DNA of 64,000 nt from Candidatus Omnitrophota bacterium (GTDB taxonomy: Bacteria > Omnitrophota > Gorgyraeia > 2-01-FULL-45-10): positions 8,895 to 72,894 of the forward strand of contig CAIMPC010000062.1 in the NCBI GenBank assembly GCA_903843285.1, in the 5' to 3' direction. Positions 4,044 to 64,000 of the stretch are shown here, piece after piece. Position 1 is the first letter of the stretch; every line of letters starts with the position of its first letter. Under the pieces are notes generated by a model. That model worked only from the letters and a program-made list of their open reading frames with translations. It was not told the DNA's origin and made no database searches. The position numbers and the translations under genes are program-made.

Positions 4044-4120
4044 TGGTAGCGGGGACTGGATTTGAACCAGTGACACGCCGGGTATGAGCCGACTGCTCTG
4101 CCAGACTGAGCTACCCCGCC
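4044..4120 (-). tRNA. tRNA-Met, anticodon CAU. Could instead be tRNA-Ile2 (lysidine-modified). Not initiator-like.
   Basis: Reverse complement is GGCGGGGTAGCTCAGTCTGGCAGAGCAGTCGGCTCATACCCGGCGTGTCACTGGTTCAAATCCAGTCCCCGCTACCA. It folds as a 77-nt cloverleaf with a 7-bp acceptor stem (G1-U72), D-arm GCTC/GAGC, anticodon loop CTCATAC, T-arm ACTGG/CCAGT, and an encoded CCA. Confidence 0.85.
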
Positions 4121-4271: not shown

Positions 4272-4333
4272 GGGACACGTTTAATCTGAAAAAAGGGGAC
4301 ACGTTAAAGGTTGGATTTGCCAAACGGTACAAA
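4272..4333. repeat. copy A of a ~60-nt conserved repeat (GGGACAcGTTTAATCTgAAAAAAGGGGACACGTTaAAGGTTGGATTTGCCAAACGGTACAAaG). It overlaps the last 9 codons of larE.
   Basis: Near-identical copies lie at 59139-59193, 60431-60492 and 61729-61789, with a partial copy at 59718-59771. Confidence 0.7.
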
Positions 4334-5134
4334 GTAAGATGATTCGTGCATGCTTCCGGTGCGATATCCGGCAAGGTCCAGGGCAATGTACACGAAGCCA
4401 AGCTTTTTAAGATTATCGACAATGGCTTTTTTTAGTTTTAAAACTTTTCTCTGATCTTCGGGTAAGAGTTCGAGCCTGGCGATATCACCATGTATCCTAA
4501 CCCTCACCTGTCTGAACCCCAGAGACCTCAAATAGCTTTCAGCTTTATCGACTCTATTCAGATCTTTTGCCGATATCTTGCTGTGAAATGGAAAACGAGA
4601 TGCAAGGCATGCAAATGACGGTTTGTCCCAGGTAGACAGCCCTAGTTTTCTGGAATATCTCCGGATGTCGTCTTTTGTGAATACGGCTTCGACTAACGGG
4701 CTCCTGACTCCCAGCTCCTTCGCCGCAAACCTACCGTAGCGCACATCCTTCAGGTCATCGTAATTTGCGCCATCGAGCAGATAACTCATCTTATGCGATT
4801 TGCGCAAATTATCCAGCTTTTTGAATAACTCCTTCTTACAGTAGTAGCATCGATTGACGGGATTGGACTTAAAATGTTTTATCGCAAGCTCCTTAGTGTC
4901 TATCGTCAGATGCCTGGCGCCAATTACCTTGGCTACGCGCACGGCCTCTTTATATTCCGCGGCCGGATAGGTCTCGGATCTCGCCGTCACAGCAAGCACA
5001 TTATCCTCACCCAGCACGTCAACAGCGACCTTCAGCAGAAAAGCGCTATCGAGTCCGCCAGAATAGGCGATGACAACGCTGTCCATATTCCTTAATATCT
5101 GCTTTAACTTGCTAAGCTTGTTCATCATCTCCAC
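4304..5134 (-). CDS. larE: ATP-dependent sacrificial sulfur transferase LarE / PP-loop ATP-utilising enzyme (TIGR00268 family)
   Basis: 276 aa. SGGLDS PP-loop motif and the LarE-like cysteine region. Confidence 0.7.
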   Translation of the reverse strand: MEMMNKLSKLKQILRNMDSVVIAYSGGLDSAFLLKVAVDVLGEDNVLAVTARSETYPAAEYKEAVRVAKVIGARHLTIDTKELAIKHFKSNPVNRCYYCKKELFKKLDNLRKSHKMSYLLDGANYDDLKDVRYGRFAAKELGVRSPLVEAVFTKDDIRRYSRKLGLSTWDKPSFACLASRFPFHSKISAKDLNRVDKAESYLRSLGFRQVRVRIHGDIARLELLPEDQRKVLKLKKAIVDNLKKLGFVYIALDLAGYRTGSMHESSYFVPFGKSNL

Positions 5135-9470: not shown

Positions 9471-10415
9471 CTATCCGGAAACCTTTCTCTTCTGATAATT
9501 ACGCTCTATCGTCTTAACGAGATTGGTAAGTACTTCGTTGACCGGCGTCGGAATATTAAGCGCCTTCGCCTGCCTTACTATCGCGCCGTTAATGAATTCT
9601 ATCTCCGTCCTATTCTTATTCAATACGTCCTGCAGCATGCTCGATATATTAGCTGAGGTAGCCCTGCAGACAGACTCGACTTTTTGTATCGGATCATCAT
9701 ATGAAAGTTTTATGCGCTTACGTTTAACCACCTTCACAGACTCCTGGACCGCGCTTCTAAGCACATGCCTGCATTCCTCATCCTCTATTATCGCGCCATT
9801 ACTTAAACCCGTTATAGCCGTGATCGCATTTATACCGGCATTGACTATAAGTTTACTCCATATGACGGAGTCGATATCCCTGGAGACCTTAGTCTCCATG
9901 CCCGCCTTTGTTAGAATGGCCGCAACATCGCGTATGGCGCCCAGGACTCTGCCATCGGCCTTCCCTATCACCGTCTCGCCTTTACCCGCATGGCGCACAT
10001 GTCCAACCCCTAGTAGCGTGGAGCCATGATTAGTAACTCCGGCTATGACCCTGTCAGCTCCAAACTGATCATTAAGTATCTGGACATTCCCCAGGCCATT
10101 CTGCAATGTCAGTATGCTGGTCTTATCCGTTACGATATCTTTTATCTCTTTACAGGCATCTTCCGTCGAATAACTTTTTACGCAAATTATCACGAGATCG
10201 CATGCGCCGATATCCCTGGCATTTGCCGTGGCATTGATCTTTACATTCAATGTAGCATTCAACCCTTCGACTTTTATACCGTCGCTCGAAATTTTCTTAG
10301 CCCTGTCGGAAAATTCGTCCAGAAGCCAGACATCTTCTTTTGCCTTACTCTTCAATAAAGCAGATACGAGGCAGCCTAACGCACCCGGACCTACTACCGC
10401 TATCTTCATAGGCAC
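9471..10415 (-). CDS. panE: 2-dehydropantoate 2-reductase (ketopantoate reductase)
   Basis: 314 aa. N-terminal Rossmann motif KIAVVGPGALG and an ApbA/PanE C-terminal domain. Confidence 0.75.
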   Translation of the reverse strand: MPMKIAVVGPGALGCLVSALLKSKAKEDVWLLDEFSDRAKKISSDGIKVEGLNATLNVKINATANARDIGACDLVIICVKSYSTEDACKEIKDIVTDKTSILTLQNGLGNVQILNDQFGADRVIAGVTNHGSTLLGVGHVRHAGKGETVIGKADGRVLGAIRDVAAILTKAGMETKVSRDIDSVIWSKLIVNAGINAITAITGLSNGAIIEDEECRHVLRSAVQESVKVVKRKRIKLSYDDPIQKVESVCRATSANISSMLQDVLNKNRTEIEFINGAIVRQAKALNIPTPVNEVLTNLVKTIERNYQKRKVSG

Positions 10416-10454
10416 ACCTCTTATTGGCTTGTAATATATATAAAACGGACTTCT

Positions 10455-10491
10455 AGATTCTTCGTTGGGCTAAAGCCATCCTCAGAATGAC
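10455..10491. repeat. REP/MITE-like palindromic unit (AGATTCTTCGTtGGGCTAAAGCCatCCTCAGAATGAC)
   Basis: Intergenic. Same unit family as at 24451-24539, 40773-40857, 59653-59692 and 60216-60393. Confidence 0.7.
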
Positions 10492-10517
10492 ATGCACTTC
10501 TATAGCTAAGCTATTAC

Positions 10518-11369: not shown

Positions 11370-12167
11370 TTACCTCTTCCTGTATGCGTCGAGAAACGAA
11401 TCGCAATAGATGTTTTTGTTCAATATGAGATCCGCCGTAATCATCGCATCCATTAATTCCTGGTCCAGCGGATCGAGGATCGCGGATGTCAGGCCGCAAG
11501 CCATCGCCATCGTCAGAAAAGTCCTGTTCAACAAGCCGCGATTGCCTTTTGTGCCCTGAGAAACGTTCGAAAGTCCGATCACGGTATTCGGCGCAGGATT
11601 ACAAAGCATCCTGAGTTCGCGTATCGTCTCGAGAACCTCTTTCCCCTGAGCCTGAGCCACATTGACCGGCATTGCTATGGGATCGAGATATAGGTCATCC
11701 GGACTTATTCCGAATTCCATGGCCTTGGCAATAATCTTTGCGGCAAGTTCCAGCCTATTATCCTTTGAATTAGGAACGCCGGACTTGTCCATAGCGACGC
11801 CGATCACCTGAGCATTATATTTCTTAGCGAGCCGAAAGACGACCGACATCTTATCGTCATCGGCGCTGGTCGAATTTATAACGACACGATTGACCGATAC
11901 CTTCAGGGCTTCCTCTATAACATCGGTCTTCGTCGAATCTATAGATAGCGCAACGGTAACAACCTTCTGGATGCTCTCGACCAGCCATTTCATATCATCC
12001 ACAGGTTTAGAGGAATATGGCCCTGCGCTTATATCGAGAATATTCGCTCCGGCTCTCACCTGCTCTTCGGCTAAATGCTGAATGACATCTGTCTCTCTGT
12101 TAGATATGGCCTTGCTGACATCCTTATACATACCGTTAATAAGTTCGCCTATTATTATCAATTTCAA
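11370..12167 (-). CDS. acsE: methyltetrahydrofolate:corrinoid/iron-sulfur protein methyltransferase (AcsE-like), paralog 1
   Basis: 265 aa pterin-binding domain protein, immediately downstream of acsD. Confidence 0.75.
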   Translation of the reverse strand: MKLIIIGELINGMYKDVSKAISNRETDVIQHLAEEQVRAGANILDISAGPYSSKPVDDMKWLVESIQKVVTVALSIDSTKTDVIEEALKVSVNRVVINSTSADDDKMSVVFRLAKKYNAQVIGVAMDKSGVPNSKDNRLELAAKIIAKAMEFGISPDDLYLDPIAMPVNVAQAQGKEVLETIRELRMLCNPAPNTVIGLSNVSQGTKGNRGLLNRTFLTMAMACGLTSAILDPLDQELMDAMITADLILNKNIYCDSFLDAYRKR

Positions 12168-12182
12168 TCCTCCCGGGAATAA

Positions 12183-13106
12183 CTACTTAGTCATGATCCA
12201 ATCTATATATCTCCTGACAGATCTGGCTGCATCCGGATGACGCATCACTATCAAATCGGCCCCGGCCTGGAGAAGAGATGTCGATGTAACTACTTCCCAA
12301 TTAATGCCCTGAACACTGCCAAACTCTTTAGCCTCTTTGGTCTTCCATGTTTCTGCGCCGACGAATACTATAAATGGCATCGCCAGCATCTTGTCACCCA
12401 CAAAAGCCGCAAGGCGGCTTCTCTCCATGATCGAATATACATACTCCATACCATATCCGAGCGACGTCGTGGTCGGATGCATCACTATACGCTTTGCATC
12501 GAACCCCATATCGCTTATAAGTATATTTACCTGCTTGGCGATATTGACATCTATCGGGGAGTCCGCTATTATCGAATGCCCGTCGGCAAGGCATGTGGCG
12601 GTCAACGTCTTATAATTATTCTGAGATGCGACGCCAAGCAGGCAATTCTCGCCCTTCAGCGCCTGGCTGACCTTAGGCATGATATCGTTATCACGCTCCT
12701 CATCTCCCGAACCCAACACTATCAAAGGAACGCCTGTCTTGCTGGCTATAGCCCTTAACACAACGAGAGCTTCATCGATCGGCCTGGAACCGTAATCGGG
12801 GTGCATGCTGGCAAGCCTGACGCATAGCGCCCGGGCCCCAAAATCTTCTACGCATGCCTTCGCCCATTTAACGGGATCTTTGACGACATTGCCATATGCA
12901 TTTATTATATGCTCCGACCAATCCTCCGGCGGACAATCCAATATCTCATATGCCACTACGGGAGGATTCGGCATCTCTCCTTCATCGAACAGAAATGGAA
13001 ATGTGCTCTGGCCGCCTATCTTAATAGACGGACATAGCGCCCCTTTCCCTATCTCCACCGTATTAATCGGGCCGCTATATTTTTCTTTAATAAGCTCTAC
13101 GGTCAT
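12183..13106 (-). CDS. acsD: corrinoid iron-sulfur protein small subunit (acetyl-CoA decarbonylase/synthase delta, AcsD/CdhD)
   Basis: 307 aa. CdhD family TIM-barrel. Sits between cooC and acsE. Confidence 0.8.
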   Translation of the reverse strand: MTVELIKEKYSGPINTVEIGKGALCPSIKIGGQSTFPFLFDEGEMPNPPVVAYEILDCPPEDWSEHIINAYGNVVKDPVKWAKACVEDFGARALCVRLASMHPDYGSRPIDEALVVLRAIASKTGVPLIVLGSGDEERDNDIMPKVSQALKGENCLLGVASQNNYKTLTATCLADGHSIIADSPIDVNIAKQVNILISDMGFDAKRIVMHPTTTSLGYGMEYVYSIMERSRLAAFVGDKMLAMPFIVFVGAETWKTKEAKEFGSVQGINWEVVTSTSLLQAGADLIVMRHPDAARSVRRYIDWIMTK

Positions 13107-24450: not shown

Positions 24451-24539
24451 GTCATCCTGAACCCGCCGGAGCTTTAGTAGCGGGTGAAGGATCTGGACGC
24501 GTAGATTCTTCGTCGGGCTAAAGCCCTCCTCAGAATGAC
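24451..24539. repeat. two adjacent REP/MITE-like units (GTCATCCTGA-hairpin-GAAGGATCT and AGATTCTTCG-hairpin-CTCAGAATGAC)
   Basis: Intergenic, between trmD and rplS. Same unit family as at the other REP-like sites. Confidence 0.7.
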
Positions 24540-24563
24540 ACACGCAATTCTATGACCAAACTA

Positions 24564-25244
24564 TCACTTCTTCCTTAACAGATCAGGTCTTCTCTGTCTA
24601 GTTCTCTTCACTGCCTCTTTCGCACGCCAATCATCTATCTTCTTATGGTCACCGGACAATAGAATGTCCGGAACCTTCATGCCCTTAAATTCTGCCGGAC
24701 GAGTATATTGCGGATACTCTAAAAAATCGTTCTCAAATGACTCCGATGCGGTCGAATCGCCGGAGCCCAGCACGCCCGGTATCAATCTCGTAACCGAATC
24801 TATAAGCACCATCGCGGGTAACTCACCGCATGTCAATATATAGTCGCCTACCGAGATCTCCTCATCGACCAGAGATCTTACCCTTTCGTCGACGCCTTCA
24901 TAATGGCCGCATATAAGAATGAGCTCTTTTTCTTTAGCAAATCTTTTTACTGTCTTCTGATCGAGCTTTATACCCTGAGGCGTAAGCAGTATAACTTTTG
25001 CGCCGCTTCCTTCAGAGGACTTAATATCCTTAAGCGCTAAATATACCGGCTCTACCTTCATCACCATTCCGGGCCCGCCGCCGAACGGTTTATCGTCAGC
25101 GCTGTGATGATTGTCGAAGGTCCAATCTCTTAAGTCATGTATTTTAACCTTTAGAAAGCCCTTAGCCTGGGCCCTCTTAAGGATCGACTCACCAAGGACG
25201 CTGTCGAACATATTGGGAAAAAGAGTCAGGATGTCTATATACAT
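24564..25244 (-). CDS. trmD: tRNA (guanine37-N1)-methyltransferase
   Basis: Typical TrmD, including the SPOUT knot region. Confidence 0.9.
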   Translation of the reverse strand: MYIDILTLFPNMFDSVLGESILKRAQAKGFLKVKIHDLRDWTFDNHHSADDKPFGGGPGMVMKVEPVYLALKDIKSSEGSGAKVILLTPQGIKLDQKTVKRFAKEKELILICGHYEGVDERVRSLVDEEISVGDYILTCGELPAMVLIDSVTRLIPGVLGSGDSTASESFENDFLEYPQYTRPAEFKGMKVPDILLSGDHKKIDDWRAKEAVKRTRQRRPDLLRKK

Positions 25245-40772: not shown

Positions 40773-40857
40773 GTCATCCTGAGCGAAGCCCGATAGGGCG
40801 AAGCGAAGGATCTCTCTTTTAGATTCTTCGTCGGGCTAAAGCCCTCCTCAGAATGAC
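40773..40857. repeat. two REP/MITE-like units (GTCATCCTGAGCGAAGCCCGATAGGGCGAAGCGAAGGATCT and AGATTCTTCGTCGGGCTAAAGCCCTCCTCAGAATGAC)
   Basis: Intergenic, between the M16 peptidase and rpe. Same unit family as at the other REP-like sites. Confidence 0.7.
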
Positions 40858-40886
40858 GCATGCACTTATATGACTGAACTATAGCC

Positions 40887-59066: not shown

Positions 59067-59193
59067 CCCCCTACTATAAAGACGCTAAAAGGGGTGAAAT
59101 TGTTGCAAAGTATTTTAAAATAGTTTGATTGGGGACAGGTTTAATCTTAAAAAAGGGGACACCGTGAAGGTTGGTTTTGCCAAACGGTACAAG
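59067..59193. repeat. copy B, long form (~125 nt) of the island repeat. It is a direct repeat of 61665-61789.
   Basis: CCCCCTACTATAAAGACGCTAAAAGGGGTGAAATTGTTGCAAAGTATTTTAAAATAGTTTGATTGGGGACAGGTTTAATCTTAAAAAAGGGGACACCGTGAAGGTTGGTTTTGCCAAACGGTACAAG. About 95% identical to copy E. Confidence 0.75.
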
Positions 59194-59692: not shown

Positions 59693-59717
59693 AGGAGCGG
59701 GATGCACTACTCACTGG

Positions 59718-59771
59718 GAAAGGTTGGATTTGCCAAACGGTATAAACACTGGGAGCATTCCAATAAATGAC
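59718..59771. repeat. partial copy C of the island repeat (GAAAGGTTGGATTTGCCAAACGGTATAAACACTGGGAGCATTCCAATAAATGAC)
   Basis: Shares the 3' tail (…GGGAGCrTTCCAATAAATGAC) with copy D. Followed by a duplicated GACCCCTTTTTTT. Confidence 0.6.
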
Positions 59772-59803
59772 TCTGACCCCTTTTTTTGTGACCCCTTTTT
59801 TTG

Positions 59804-60109
59804 CTAGACGAAAACTTTTTCTTCAACTTTTTTAACTCGACTCGCGAGGCCTTTTGTTTCATGGCTAATGTCCATCACAGCGCTTTTTACCGTATCAAGA
59901 TCCCGCTCGATTCTGTCTAAACGCTGACTATGTCCATCGAGAACGTGTTCAATTCTACCCAAGCGCTGATCATGCCCATCAAGCTTTCTTATTATGATTC
60001 CGTGGCCTTCGGCAATGGTCTGAACCTGCTTACTTATACCCTCTAACAATACTCTGGTTTCGCGGTCAGAGTCTGTGGTCTTATTTTTTGGCGCTTTATC
60101 ATTCTTCAT
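59804..60109 (-). CDS. small heptad-repeat coiled-coil protein, short paralog (101 aa), unknown family
   Basis: Starts with RBS GAGGAG then ATG. It is a paralog of 60537..61010, sharing an identical ~67-nt 5' leader (60110-60176 vs 61011-61077), an identical N-terminus (MKNDKAPKNKTTDS…) and an identical C-terminus (…ERDLDTVKSAVMDISHETKGLASRVKKVEEKVFV). It contains LDGHxQRL heptads. Confidence 0.6.
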   Translation of the reverse strand: MKNDKAPKNKTTDSDRETRVLLEGISKQVQTIAEGHGIIIRKLDGHDQRLGRIEHVLDGHSQRLDRIERDLDTVKSAVMDISHETKGLASRVKKVEEKVFV

Positions 60110-60215
60110 TTACTATTGTCTCCTCGTCGTAAAGTGAATATATCATACCGGGTTATTGAAGTAAACTTATTTTTCACGGGCTCCTGGATGGGGTTGTTTA
60201 ATCCGACCCCCGGAC

Positions 60216-60393
60216 GTCATTCTGAACGAAGGAGCCGAAGGGCGGAGTGAAGCCTGCCTGCCTACTATCGGAGCACCTGCAGGTAGGCAGGAATCTATGC
60301 GTTCAGATCCTTCGGCTCGCCACTTTCAGTGGCGGCCTCAGGATGACATACGCTTCGTCATTCTGAGGAGGGCTTTAGCCCGACGAAGAATCT
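60216..60393. repeat. composite array of three REP/MITE-like units, including one with a long GCCTGCCTGCCTAC…GCAGGTAGGCAGG hairpin insert
   Basis: Units at 60216-60296, 60303-60348 (inverted) and 60357-60393. Confidence 0.65.
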
Positions 60394-60430
60394 AAGGCAC
60401 TTGGATGACGAAGGGGCGCTTCTCTCGTCA

Positions 60431-60519
60431 GGGACAGGTTTAATCTTAAAAAAAGGGACACGTTGAAGGTTGGATTCTGCAAACGGTACAAGTGCTGGGA
60501 GCGTTCCAATAAATGACCC
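60431..60519. repeat. copy D of the island repeat (core 60431-60492 plus the tail shared with copy C)
   Basis: GGGACAGGTTTAATCTTAAAAAAAGGGACACGTTGAAGGTTGGATTCTGCAAACGGTACAAGTGCTGGGAGCGTTCCAATAAATGACCC. Confidence 0.7.
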
Positions 60520-60536
60520 TTTTTTGCTAGACGCTA

Positions 60537-61010
60537 CTAAACGAAAACTTTTTCTTCAACTTTTTTAACACGACTCGCGAGGCCTTTTGTTTCATGGCTA
60601 ATGTCCATCACAGCGCTTTTTACCGTATCAAGATCCCGCTCGATTCTGTCAAAACGCTGACTATGTCCATTAAGAATCTGACCATGCCCGCTCAAGCTCT
60701 GCGTATGCTCATCGAGGATCTGGCCATGTTTATTCAAGCTCTGCGTATGCTCATCGAGGATCTGGCCATGTTTATTCAGAATCTGAGTATGCTCATCGAG
60801 GATCTGGCCATGTTTATTCAGGATCTGAGTATGCTCATCGAGAACATTCTCAATCCTATCCAGGCGTTGACTATGCCCATCAAGCTTTCTTATTATGATT
60901 CCGTGGCCTTCGGCAACGGTCTGAACATGCTTACTTATACTCTCTAACAATACTCTGGTTTCGCGTTCAGAGTCTGTGGTCTTATTTTTTGGCGCTTTAT
61001 CATTCTTCAT
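60537..61010 (-). CDS. small heptad-repeat coiled-coil protein, expanded paralog (157 aa), unknown family
   Basis: Same leader, RBS and termini as 59804..60109. The middle is expanded by 14-aa / 42-bp in-frame tandem repeats (ILNKHGQILDEHTQ)n, giving about 12 consecutive LDxHxQx heptads. Confidence 0.6.
   Translation of the reverse strand: MKNDKAPKNKTTDSERETRVLLESISKHVQTVAEGHGIIIRKLDGHSQRLDRIENVLDEHTQILNKHGQILDEHTQILNKHGQILDEHTQSLNKHGQILDEHTQSLSGHGQILNGHSQRFDRIERDLDTVKSAVMDISHETKGLASRVKKVEEKVFV
60693..60850. repeat. 42-bp perfect or near-perfect tandem repeat, about 3.8 copies, in frame inside the 157-aa gene
   Basis: caagctctgcgtatgctcatcgaggatctggccatgtttatt occurs twice exactly, then two variant units. 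It is absent from the 101-aa paralog. Confidence 0.8.
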
Positions 61011-61248
61011 TTACTATTGTCTCCTCGTCGTAAAGTGAATATATCATACCGGGTTATTGAAGTAAACTTATTTTTCGCAGGCGCCTTTTTTCACGGGCTC
61101 CTGAACATTAATCCGAATGAAATCCTATCCTGCGCTTAGGCTGATCAGGGTGCGGAACCATTAGCTGACGAATCGCCTCGAAGATCATGCCGATATCTTC
61201 ACCATGCTTCTCTATTTTTATTTCAAGCTCGTTCAATTTATTAGATAA

Positions 61249-61664: not shown

Positions 61665-61789
61665 CCCCACTATAAAGACGCGAAAAGGGGTGAAATTGTT
61701 GCAAAGTATTTTAAAATAGTTTGATTTGGGACAGGTTTAATCTTAAAAAAGGGGACACGTTGAAGGTTGGATTCGGCAAACGGTACAAG
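61665..61789. repeat. copy E, long form (~125 nt) of the island repeat. It is a direct repeat of 59067-59193.
   Basis: Begins 5 nt after the stop of the large upstream gene and ends 36 nt before the ORF6N start codon. Contains the AT-rich near-palindrome AAGTATTTTAAAATAGTT. Confidence 0.75.
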
Positions 61790-61795
61790 AGTGGG

Positions 61796-64000
61796 TTAGG
61801 CGCTGCGGGAGGCTTTGTCCATTGCGCTGAGCATCTTACTGATGGCTTCGGCGACGTCTCTGAATATCTTAAAGAATCCGAAGTAGCCGGATAGCTTCTT
61901 TATGCTATTATCATTTTCCTTATAGCCTATCGCGACGAACGCGCCCTTCATAATTATCGAGGCAAGCAGGTTAGTCAGGTTAATCTTTTCGACTGCGACT
62001 ACTGTATCGGCATTCATGCCTTTTCTATTGATAAGGGCATATGCCAGGGTGCCTTCACGGCCCTTCTCACGCGTATTCACAGCGTCCGCGCCTATCATAT
62101 TTATCTCATTGCCGGTATCGGTGTCTTCTAATAGGATGGCGATATTGCCAACCTTTACATTATTGGCTTCCATGGCAGACCGTATGGCATCCGATGGATT
62201 AACGCCCTCACCTACCAACACGACAGAGACTCCCGGCACATTCTTCTCGAGCGCGCTTTGCTGTTGGGCATCTCTGGCTATGAGAACCATCCTGGCTACA
62301 TTATTATTCTTCTCGGCATAGCCTAATGCTTCCCGGAATTCTCCACGAAGCTGGCCCTTATCCTTATCGAACACACTATTGCCATCGAACGCCAATATTA
62401 CAGTATCGCGGACTATGCTCGCCCTGTGTAATTTGCCAAGGGCTTCGAAGAGGCCCTCTAAACTGCCCGACTTATCCCTTAACACACCCTCTATCATGGC
62501 GTAAGCGCCGGTCACATTAACATCCTCTTTTGAATATACGCCATTGGCATATGTAAACGTATGCTGTTCCATCAGCTCACCGCTCTTAACAAACGCCGCG
62601 AGCGGCACAGCCGGCATCTTAAGGACCTTAAAACTGCCATCCGGCAATATGACCATCGATCCGGCATCGCCCAGTTTGGCGAAGTTTGCCCTGTCCGCGT
62701 CGAATTCCGCATCATTAGCAGGCATAACGGGATGGGAGTGGATCAACCAGCGCGTATTCGCATTAAACAGGACGGTAGACTTATAGTCATAGGAAGCGGC
62801 TGTAGCGTCAAAGACGATGGCGGCATTCCTGAAGGCATATGCGACCTTACCATCAGATCCGACAGAGAACGCGACCTCGTATAAGCCCTTGCCTATCGCC
62901 GTAGTCATATTGTTCCTTATCGTTTCATCGGGGAAGTCTGCGACATGGCTATCTATATACTCTTTAACCTTATCGCCCACTTTATCGCCTTTTTTGAGCG
63001 CTATATCGAAGCTTCTGCCGCCGATCTCTATCGTGTATGTCATATCCTCAGCGGCGATACCGTTACTTGCCAAACCCTGCATCCTGGTAATCTCGATGGC
63101 CGATTCTCTCGACACCGTATCGACACCACCAACCTTAGTGGCATTTGTAAGGCGTTCGGCTTTGGTCTGAGTCTTTTCGATAATCTTAGTTACGGTTTCG
63201 GGAGTTGCAGGCTCGCCGAGCAGGCTGGACTGAGCCATCATAATGCCGGGTCCGAGCGGCCCAACTCCGATCAATCCGTTTCTGAGCGCATCGATATTTT
63301 CCGGATGCGCTAATCTCTCGCTAATTGGCCCAAAGCTCGGAGCAAATTTGGCTGTGAATTCCGCGCGCTTCTCATCATTAAATTTACTCAAGGCGAGGCC
63401 AAGCGGGTTCTCGCCTGATTTATAACCGAAGAATTCCCTCTGGGTTATCTTATAAAGGTTGTCATGCGTATTAGTAGGTGTCACGGATTCCAATACTTCG
63501 TGGAGTATGTATTCCTGGATAAGCTTATTTCCATAAGGGGTGGGGGCGACCATCTTCGAGAGATATTCGATCACGTCCGCGGCGAGGGCTATTCCACCTC
63601 TCTTACCGAATCCTAAGAGATGCCCTGTGATCGGCTCGACTCTCGCAGTGAAGTATGAGATCATCGCGGCTCTTGTCTCGGGATTATTAAGCTTGCTCAA
63701 CATAGCCAGTGCGTCAGGATAAGAATCTGAGCTTATACCAGCCGGAGGACCTCTATTCATAGCCGTATCAAATAATTGCCTTATAGCCTGAGTCACCGCA
63801 TCCTCGACAACTTTATCTACACCTTCCAATTTCTGCACCAATCCGGAGGCGAATACCGCCTCGATAGACTCAGCGGCGTCTACCCTATCCTTCAGCCAGC
63901 CTTTAGCTATCTCTCCACCTCCGCCGGGTGATACGATAGGAGGAGCCTGCTTCTCAATCGCACTCACCCCCCAATCTACAGTAATTTCTCCTATATTATT
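61796..64000 (-). CDS. large hypothetical protein (at least 723 aa) with no recognisable family. The 5' end is unresolved and may continue past the window edge.
   Basis: Uninterrupted minus-strand frame from the window edge to TAA at 61796-61798. The candidate GTG at 63965-63967 has a poor SD. It contains a WLIHSHPVMPANDAEFD segment that loosely fits the JAMM/MPN H-x-H-x(n)-D signature. Ala/Gly-rich. Confidence 0.55.
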   Translation of the reverse strand, partial: NNIGEITVDWGVSAIEKQAPPIVSPGGGGEIAKGWLKDRVDAAESIEAVFASGLVQKLEGVDKVVEDAVTQAIRQLFDTAMNRGPPAGISSDSYPDALAMLSKLNNPETRAAMISYFTARVEPITGHLLGFGKRGGIALAADVIEYLSKMVAPTPYGNKLIQEYILHEVLESVTPTNTHDNLYKITQREFFGYKSGENPLGLALSKFNDEKRAEFTAKFAPSFGPISERLAHPENIDALRNGLIGVGPLGPGIMMAQSSLLGEPATPETVTKIIEKTQTKAERLTNATKVGGVDTVSRESAIEITRMQGLASNGIAAEDMTYTIEIGGRSFDIALKKGDKVGDKVKEYIDSHVADFPDETIRNNMTTAIGKGLYEVAFSVGSDGKVAYAFRNAAIVFDATAASYDYKSTVLFNANTRWLIHSHPVMPANDAEFDADRANFAKLGDAGSMVILPDGSFKVLKMPAVPLAAFVKSGELMEQHTFTYANGVYSKEDVNVTGAYAMIEGVLRDKSGSLEGLFEALGKLHRASIVRDTVILAFDGNSVFDKDKGQLRGEFREALGYAEKNNNVARMVLIARDAQQQSALEKNVPGVSVVLVGEGVNPSDAIRSAMEANNVKVGNIAILLEDTDTGNEINMIGADAVNTREKGREGTLAYALINRKGMNADTVVAVEKINLTNLLASIIMKGAFVAIGYKENDNSIKKLSGYFGFFKIFRDVAEAISKMLSAMDKASRSA

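Follow-up and report, generated by a model that had tools for sequence, protein, structure and literature searches.

The 64,000-nt stretch of Candidatus Omnitrophota contig CAIMPC010000062.1 analysed here (the window; assembly GCA_903843285.1) carries a 62-nt repeated element that is found at the 3' end of larE and, several times, in the 59-62 kb region upstream of recA. Four full copies and one half copy are present, all on the minus strand, which is also the gene strand (49 long open reading frames, ORFs, lie on the minus strand against 4 on the plus strand, and the GC skew is -0.16). The four 62-nt copies, recovered by repeat finding within the window, are mutually 87-100% identical, and a search with their 32-nt core allowing up to 3 mismatches matched 4 sites, compared with 0.00 expected from shuffled sequences; the half copy was detected with an nhmmer profile built from all copies. 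On the minus strand the copies read 5'-CTTGTACCGTTTG...GTGTCCCC...CTGTCCC-3', and all five sites have the form CTTGTACC...TGTCCC. An earlier inspection of the letters alone (the sequence-only reading) had listed five copies of about 60 nt, which become four full copies and one half copy, the second starting at 59132 and not at 59139. In our view, the element is probably the terminal inverted repeat (TIR) that bounds the units known as TIRtrons. The five sites in the window are solo copies of this repeat in intergenic Omnitrophota DNA, probably with a role like that of repetitive extragenic palindromes (REPs). The features discussed are collected in Table 1.

Table 1. Positions of the element, its boxes and associated features in the window, and transposase relatives analysed on other contigs.
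Feature	Positions	Strand	Remarks
Full solo copy 1	4272-4333	-	nhmmer E 3.5e-20; covers last 9 codons and stop of LarE
Full solo copy 2	59132-59193	-	nhmmer E 5.4e-20; about 230 nt upstream of recA
Half copy (outer box and A part only)	59719-59746	-	nhmmer E 1.2e-05
Full solo copy 3	60431-60492	-	nhmmer E 1.5e-20; after 157-aa coiled-coil (XhlA-like) ORF
Full solo copy 4	61728-61789	-	nhmmer E 4.7e-21; after giant-protein gene
Box 1 (outer end), TGTACCGTTTG	61777-61787 (copy 4)	-	21-copy alignment
Box 2, GTGTCCCC	61751-61758 (copy 4)	-	complement GGGGACAC fits GGGGWSAS
Box 3 (inner end), CTGTCCC	61728-61734 (copy 4)	-	complement GGGACAG; fits GGGGWSAS in most copies
Leader module, promoter-like, TTTTAAAATAcTTTGCAAC-N17-CGTCTTTATAGT	59069-59131	-	abuts copy 2
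Leader module, second copy	61665-61727	-	abuts copy 4; precedes ORF6N gene
larE, PP-loop ATP-dependent sulfur transferase	4304-5134	-	native end ...GSMHESS + YFVPFGKSNL
L010 (ENA assembly)			transposase 70% identical
L012 (NCBI GCA_028715345.1)			transposase 72% identical
L015			transposase 70% identical
L016			transposase 61% identical
L018			transposase 58% identical

The distance of the copies from the preceding stop codon varies. Copy 4 begins 6 nt (at 61789) and copy 2 begins 3 nt (at 59193) beyond a stop, the ORF preceding the latter being doubtful (45 aa), and these two conform to the earlier description of an element that always starts a few nucleotides past a stop; the other three do not, with distances of 44 nt (at 60492) and, for the half copy, 57 nt (at 59746), and with an overlap of 30 nt with the gene end at larE. 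The half copy is also shorter than the partial copy previously placed at 59718-59771, of which only about 28 nt belong to the element, the similarity between 59720-59774 and 60466-60520 being part of the tandem duplication of the upstream gene. The copies at 59.7 and 60.4 kb follow the two paralogous XhlA-like genes that resulted from this duplication and cannot be counted as independent. The inner half of the 59719 copy has been swapped for another repeat family, a replacement that may have occurred by a microhomology-mediated event; a direct repeat, TCCCAGTG, is found on each side of the half copy region (59707-59746).

Outside the window, homologous copies form inverted pairs around a transposase gene. 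In L007 (labels of this kind designate the other contigs), inverted copies at 11945-12008 and 12832-12769 bracket a 177-aa ORF (12273-12806) that matches Pfam Y1_Tnp (PF01797)/IS200-like with an E-value of 2.8e-16; the right-hand copy covers the final 13 codons of this ORF. A search for homologues gave 475 relatives, every named one being a 'transposase' of Candidatus Omnitrophota, and the DNA around five further relatives was analysed (Table 1). Homologous copies in inverted orientation also lie on either side of the gene in L010, L012, L015 and L018 (nhmmer E 4e-05 to 2e-19; 1e-11 to 1e-16 in L010 and L012), and the right one overlaps the transposase stop codon, so that, with L007, five contigs show this arrangement. 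In L016 only the right copy was found by nhmmer (E 0.005), and a diverged left copy was recognised by eye in the upstream flank. The neighbouring genes differ in L007, L010, L012 and L016, indicating that the 0.7-0.9-kb unit occupies different chromosomal sites in several genomes; L015 and L018 have several flanking gene families in common, so these two are possibly orthologous and not mutually independent. The unit is thus a TIR, a short promoter/leader, a RAYT-like Y1 (HUH) transposase gene and an inverted TIR lying over the stop codon of this gene. A second, different Y1 transposase gene is located 9 kb from the first in L018/L019 (207-686), flanked by iterated GGGGACAGGTCTAGGAT units in which the GGGGACAG box occurs in another repeat architecture.

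The alignment of 21 copies (from the window, L003, L005, L007-L010, L012, L015, L016 and L018) defines three boxes, in the order TGTACCGTTTG, about 19 nt, GTGTCCCC, 16 nt and STGTCCC. Box 1 is nearly invariant: its only differences in the 21 copies are single-base changes in the two most divergent ones, which have one each. A GGGGACAS motif is present twice per element, in boxes 24 nt apart: GGGGACAC and GGGGACAG, which both fit GGGGWSAS, are found in nearly every copy, and the GGGGACAS core of both boxes is invariant except in L016 (GGGTACAS). The outer box holds GTAC, forms no stem and lacks the GT[AG]G foot of REPs. The two ends, TGTACC outside and TGTCCC inside, are sharp in 13 distinct full copies, and at least 10 solo copies stop at the same inner base, with unrelated DNA beyond it. 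Identical inner and outer ends at unrelated loci favour the spread of single TIRs by the transposase, as random decay would not produce them. The outer end is preceded by CT or TT in 13 of the 17 copies tabulated, which recalls the cleavage at CT by TnpA-REP enzymes (PMC8266576).

No secondary structure was detected in the element. Neither strand of any copy folded more stably than its shuffles (z -0.24 to +1.6), and RNAalifold returned 0 consensus base pairs on each strand of the 21-copy alignment, in line with the sequence-only reading, which had seen no convincing conserved hairpin, had considered a plain intrinsic terminator unlikely and had proposed the covariance analysis. A terminator scan found none at the copies, a promoter scan gave only weak sigma-70-like matches, located in the leader, and at the Rfam gathering threshold the only match in the window was a tRNA-Met (4044-4120), with none for the element. 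A terminator, a palindrome of the REP type and a site of the attC type are thereby excluded. Between the larE copy and the tRNA-Met downstream of it there are 150 nt, and by eye a tRNA-like sequence is found in L015 (~9750-9830) about 20 nt from the left TIR; this proximity is probably a coincidence, as no similarity between the element and tRNA was seen. A sigma-54 promoter, a tRNA T-arm or att site, Tn3-type inverted repeats and the variable repeats of diversity-generating retroelements were also considered and discarded by eye, since the spacing, the structure or the A-specific variation is wrong.

The transposases of these units have 161-180 aa and are 58-72% identical. The HUH (NHIH), WQ and Tyr (YIExNP; also written YIETNP) motifs are invariant in 30 aligned homologues. 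The best match is the NCBIfam RAYT model (67-76 bits, below its cut-off of 80), the IS200 model being weaker (21-30 bits). No match was obtained when the PDB was searched by sequence, but the AlphaFold model (mean predicted local distance difference test score, pLDDT, 86) has as closest fold the REP-hairpin complex of E. coli TnpA-REP (4ER8; E 2.9e-09, TM-score 0.69-0.73), followed by the ISDra2 and IS608 transposases. The C-terminal tail, which is encoded by the inner half of the element, is disordered in the model (pLDDT ~50). Among the 120 listed homologues, 10 end in GTxLISxxGTx before the stop, which corresponds to GGGACA...GGGACA read in one frame; these 10 belong to the closest homologues, with identities of at least 58%, and several more end at GTxLI, a truncated form; P0007 ends in GDSFNLKIGDTLKV, from the same DNA in a different frame, and more distant homologues end in RGHL, RVQL or WGQV, which is GGGGACAS in the third frame. 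Dipeptides of the GGGGACAS type are present in 62 of the 120 listed tails, compared with 16.6 +/- 3.9 in control windows. The tails therefore read the element in several frames, showing that it is the DNA that is conserved and not the peptide.

Units of this kind have been described before. RAYT-like genes flanked by long TIRs and not by REPs were named TIRtrons, and their enzymes TIRYTs (Di Nocera, De Gregorio & Rocco 2013, BMC Genomics 14:522, PMC3733652); according to excerpts of this article, several TIRYT TIRs share GGGGWSAS, some overlap the 5' or 3' end of the gene, and certain genomes contain 'moderately abundant' TIR families whose members occur singly, as dimers or in groups. Excerpts of a later study place most TIRYTs in subclass 2.1, with the Y motif YIELNP, for which a C-terminal helix-turn-helix (HTH) domain is typical and the median length is 238 aa (Quentin et al. 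2018, PMC6006769). The Omnitrophota units likewise have a RAYT-like Y1 gene with HUH and Tyr motifs, bracketed by a long inverted pair that contains GGGGWSAS, includes no GTAG-footed palindrome, overlaps the 3' end of the gene and has dispersed copies elsewhere. Judged against these excerpts, and placed by motif, layout and description, the element agrees in every sequence-level feature compared and probably belongs to the TIRtron/TIRYT class. It differs in its host, as Omnitrophota are not named among the TIRYT hosts in the excerpts of either paper, in its short protein that lacks the C-terminal HTH and has YIExNP as Y motif, and in the defined three-box architecture of its 62 nt.

Other known systems resemble the element in part. 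REP/REPIN-RAYT systems (REPtrons) were reportedly described by Nunvar in 2010, by Bertels and Rainey in 2011 and by Ton-Hoang in 2012, and RAYTs are thought to spread REPs. As in these systems, a single transposase-like gene is flanked by an inverted short repeat that is dispersed extragenically, mostly downstream of genes, and the fold closest to the transposase and the CT/TT at the element edge point in the same direction; unlike REPs, however, which have 20-40 nt, the element has 62 nt, no palindrome and no GT[AG]G foot, it occurs as single copies and not as hairpin doublets, and its protein falls under the RAYT cut-off. With the IS200/IS605 family (IS608, ISDra2) it has in common the Y1 HUH fold, but the elements of that family have subterminal hairpins, differing ends and no TIRs, and move as a whole, in contrast to the hairpin-less 62-nt inverted repeats found here. 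Miniature inverted-repeat transposable elements (MITEs) are also short, non-coding, dispersed derivatives of transposon ends, but they comprise both ends in inverted orientation and target-site duplications, whereas here the ends are single and duplications are not detectable.

The distribution of the element outside the window is narrow. A search for a 19-base core in 185,579 reference genomes, a species set in which this lineage is missing, gave one chance match, in Maribacter, where the rest of the element is missing. The core is present in eight metagenome stretches, mostly of sample Ga0114951; one of them (L004) is identical to the 61.7-kb region of the window, and the window DNA also belongs to this sample. 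Three weak or chance matches, and no transposase, were found in viral contigs. In the Ga0114951 contigs there are at least 12 solo copies and one TIRtron. Most solo copies lie 5-15 nt past the stop codon of a co-oriented gene, and only 1 of about 14 lies over an ORF end. The orientation relative to the gene strand, previously thought to be always the same, is indeed the same for all copies in the window, but overall about 12 of 15 solo copies point the same way as the gene upstream of them, a strong bias and not a rule: two copies in L008 (10226 and 11631) have the opposite orientation and abut the starts of the genes just downstream.

In L008, the full element in the region 10222-10330 is succeeded in tandem by a second, partial start of the element, which comprises the outer 30 nt and takes in 8 nt of flank, and a 100-nt segment with this half copy is duplicated 1.3 kb away (11623-11720), 26 nt upstream of a SprT/YgjP-like gene. 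L023 begins exactly at the first bases of the element, and L020 and L021 break inside the repeat cluster upstream of recA, which shows that the repeats fragment assemblies.

Two of the full copies in the window are followed by a promoter-like leader module, which occurs in the window only at these two sites (Table 1). In the TIRtrons this module sits between the left TIR and the ATG of the transposase gene, and it also adjoins the solo copy of L003; altogether it is found ahead of recA, of the ORF6N gene and of every TIRYT gene examined. A fuller form, TTTTAAAATA-N3-TTGCAAC-N17-CGTCTTTATAGT, has a spacing like that of promoters of extracytoplasmic function (ECF) sigma factors, and further sites are located in L029 (5255-5310) and L007 (12205-12260). 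The module may travel with the left TIR, or it may be, as its positions hint, a regulon-type promoter or operator common to recA and the transposase.

How solo copies could arise may be proposed by analogy with related enzymes. The transposase would recognise the three conserved boxes on one DNA strand, cut single-stranded DNA at the outer edge, by the CT/TT, and copy or move single TIRs to new sites, where insertions would survive only between genes, mostly oriented with the coding (probably leading) strand; this co-orientation would place the copies just after stop codons. At larE, the copy would have landed on the stop codon, with read-through adding nine codons. The orientation bias, toward the G-rich coding strand, fits the strand-specific single-strand mechanism of IS200/IS605 relatives, whose 'peel and paste' transposition could explain it. 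The recombination site that the sequence-only reading had offered as one option is thus retained in a modified form, as a repeat derived from a mobile element that is very probably the DNA site of a recombinase-like Y1 HUH transposase.

Several observations weigh against this proposal. No transposase homologue was found by tblastn in the 64-kb window, and the nearest TIRtron (L007), although from the same metagenome, has a tetranucleotide correlation with the window of only 0.68, compared with 0.86-0.91 for L003, L008 and L009. Three other TIRtron loci, of 20 kb each, contain no solo copies, so the amplification is lineage-specific. No target-site duplication was found, nor a clear target motif beyond the YT dinucleotide. 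The copies are 3-13% diverged, which suggests old rather than ongoing activity, and no polymorphism between empty and filled sites was found, as contigs with identical proteins, also those of other samples, either share the insertions or break at the repeats. To our knowledge, every Y1 transposase characterised so far depends on a DNA hairpin, which the element lacks.

The divergence and the missing polymorphism would also be expected if the solo copies were not units that move by themselves but remnants left by the decay of full-length, insertion sequence-like TIRtron insertions or by rearrangements. Three of them (59132, 61728 and that of L003) keep the transposase leader module, and half copies consisting of the outer 30 nt exist (window 59719; L002; L008 10297 and 11631), as this explanation would predict. 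Nevertheless we consider it unlikely. Random deletion would leave ragged ends and not the exact inner base that the solo copies share. Recombination between inverted repeats inverts the DNA and does not delete it, so this process, acting on the two ends of a TIRtron, cannot leave a solo copy behind. They also far outnumber the TIRtrons of the same sample, which argues for the spread of single TIRs in trans.

The cluster upstream of recA admits a more speculative extension of the TIR explanation. Here four direct copies, 0.5-1.3 kb apart, separate the ORF6N gene, two XhlA-like paralogues and toxin-like fragments, and the whole 2.6-kb block is bracketed by 125-nt direct repeats, 94% identical, that consist of copies 2 and 4 with their leader modules. 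In a related contig, L029, which has 80% nucleotide identity over recA-recX, cinA and ligT lie ahead of recA in place of the giant-protein gene and the small accessory genes, so that the block is absent, and a leader-like module is found upstream of recA with no element; because of this rearrangement upstream of recA, L029 does not represent a clean empty site. The spaced direct copies, the bracketing repeat and the absence of the block from L029 are consistent with an integron-like cassette array built on hairpin-less sites by the Y1 transposase, in which one strand would be cut by the enzyme at one TIR after another, and a TIR with its adjacent genes would move as single-stranded circles, which would re-insert at another TIR. 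We regard this as distinctly unlikely, but, if true, the array would be a gene-capture system run by an HUH enzyme.

The window has several other features of note. The XhlA-like coiled-coil gene is duplicated in tandem (59804-60185 and 60537-61086, 101 aa and 157 aa), the longer copy being expanded by 21/42-nt in-frame repeats (LDEHTQILNKHGQI units, 60652-60861). The ORF at 61796-63967 continues beyond the window; in the full contig, of 82.6 kb, it forms the C-terminal part of a giant protein of 4036 aa, and no Pfam match was obtained for the 723 aa encoded within the window. A second repeat family, GTCATTCTGAGGAGGGCTTTAGCCCGACGAAGAATCTA, is present at 10454-10516, 24502-24564, 40819-40882 (+) and 60356-60395 (inverted), as an imperfect palindrome in short intergenic gaps with 38-40 nt identical between copies, and looks like a separate REP/MITE-like family. 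Units related to it are found in L007 between the left TIR and the transposase gene, beside the 59.7-kb half copy and beside the L009 copy. A third repeat, CCTGCCTACCTGCAG...GTAGGCAGGCAGGCTTC (inverted arms), is located at 60265-60300 and inside the L007 TIRtron (12072-12115).

Another possibility is that the host has co-opted the element as an orientation-dependent cis signal, such as an operator or protein-binding site, part of a promoter or an element of the 3' untranslated region. The strong orientation bias and the nearness to stop codons could be understood in this way, as could the reverse copies right at gene starts in L008, the position of the element, often 5-10 nt upstream of the promoter-like module, including that of recA, and the near invariance of the three boxes in spite of the low identity of the transposases. 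This last point, however, is explained by recognition by the transposase, there is neither an RNA structure nor an Rfam match, and L029 has the recA promoter module and no element, which is therefore dispensable there. As the sole explanation a cis signal is very unlikely, although it is compatible with the TIR origin that we prefer.

The larE copy had suggested a mobile 3'-end module that grafts a short C-terminal tag, VPFGKSNL. As described earlier from the letters, and confirmed here by the reading frame, the element supplies the last nine codons: LarE ends ...GSMHESSY-FVPFGKSNL, with FVPFGKSNL and the stop lying in the element, and every copy keeps the corresponding frame open over 9 codons. 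In this frame, however, a stop right after ...NL is present in 4 of the 13 unique full copies, and the later residues vary non-conservatively. The comparison of C-termini in relatives that had been advised shows that the tail is lineage-specific, as it is present in 0 of 119 LarE homologues (identity 64-85%; those with a named source come almost entirely from Omnitrophota), most of which end ...GYRTGSMHE plus 0-2 residues, with two ending exactly at ...MHESS and the rest in unrelated short tails; the identical tailed LarE recurs in other samples of the same population. With a single solo copy over a gene end, no Pfam match for the element-encoded peptides, two other frames in use at the transposase 3' ends, where the tail is predicted to be disordered, and reverse copies upstream of genes in L008, a mobile coding module is effectively refuted and scarcely credible. 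The LarE tail is an insertion artefact, the lineage-specific result of a copy on the original stop codon, and neither ancestry nor a grafted functional tag. An apparent synonymous pattern in one plus-strand frame (ACN Thr, YTR Leu) was also rejected as a sign of coding, since in-frame stops lie directly upstream and the positions concerned also serve the transposase frame, as its last codon and its stop (TGA/TAA).

The direct orientation downstream of short accessory ORFs, the array-like 59-62 kb cluster and a T-run after GTGTCCCC might suggest an intrinsic terminator or a site of the integron attC type. The probability of either is next to nil, since attC function requires a folded bottom strand and neither strand of the element forms a stem-loop, the associated enzyme found is a Y1 HUH transposase and not an IntI tyrosine recombinase, and the terminator scan was empty at the copies.

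The element is thus a repeat that recurs in Omnitrophota genomes and metagenomes and is tied to a specific transposase family. It gives rise to annotation artefacts, such as the spurious nine-residue tail of LarE, spurious small ORFs that run across copies, and transposase tails that are in fact DNA sites. We know of no published TIRYT biochemistry. Going by excerpts of PMC3733652 and PMC6006769, where binding and cleavage assays are proposed as future work, how TIRYTs recognise DNA is a question that has stood since their description in 2013. The three-box map may serve as a predicted hairpin-less substrate map for this uncharacterised branch of Y1 HUH enzymes, and would provide the oligonucleotides with which to probe DNA recognition by TIRYTs.

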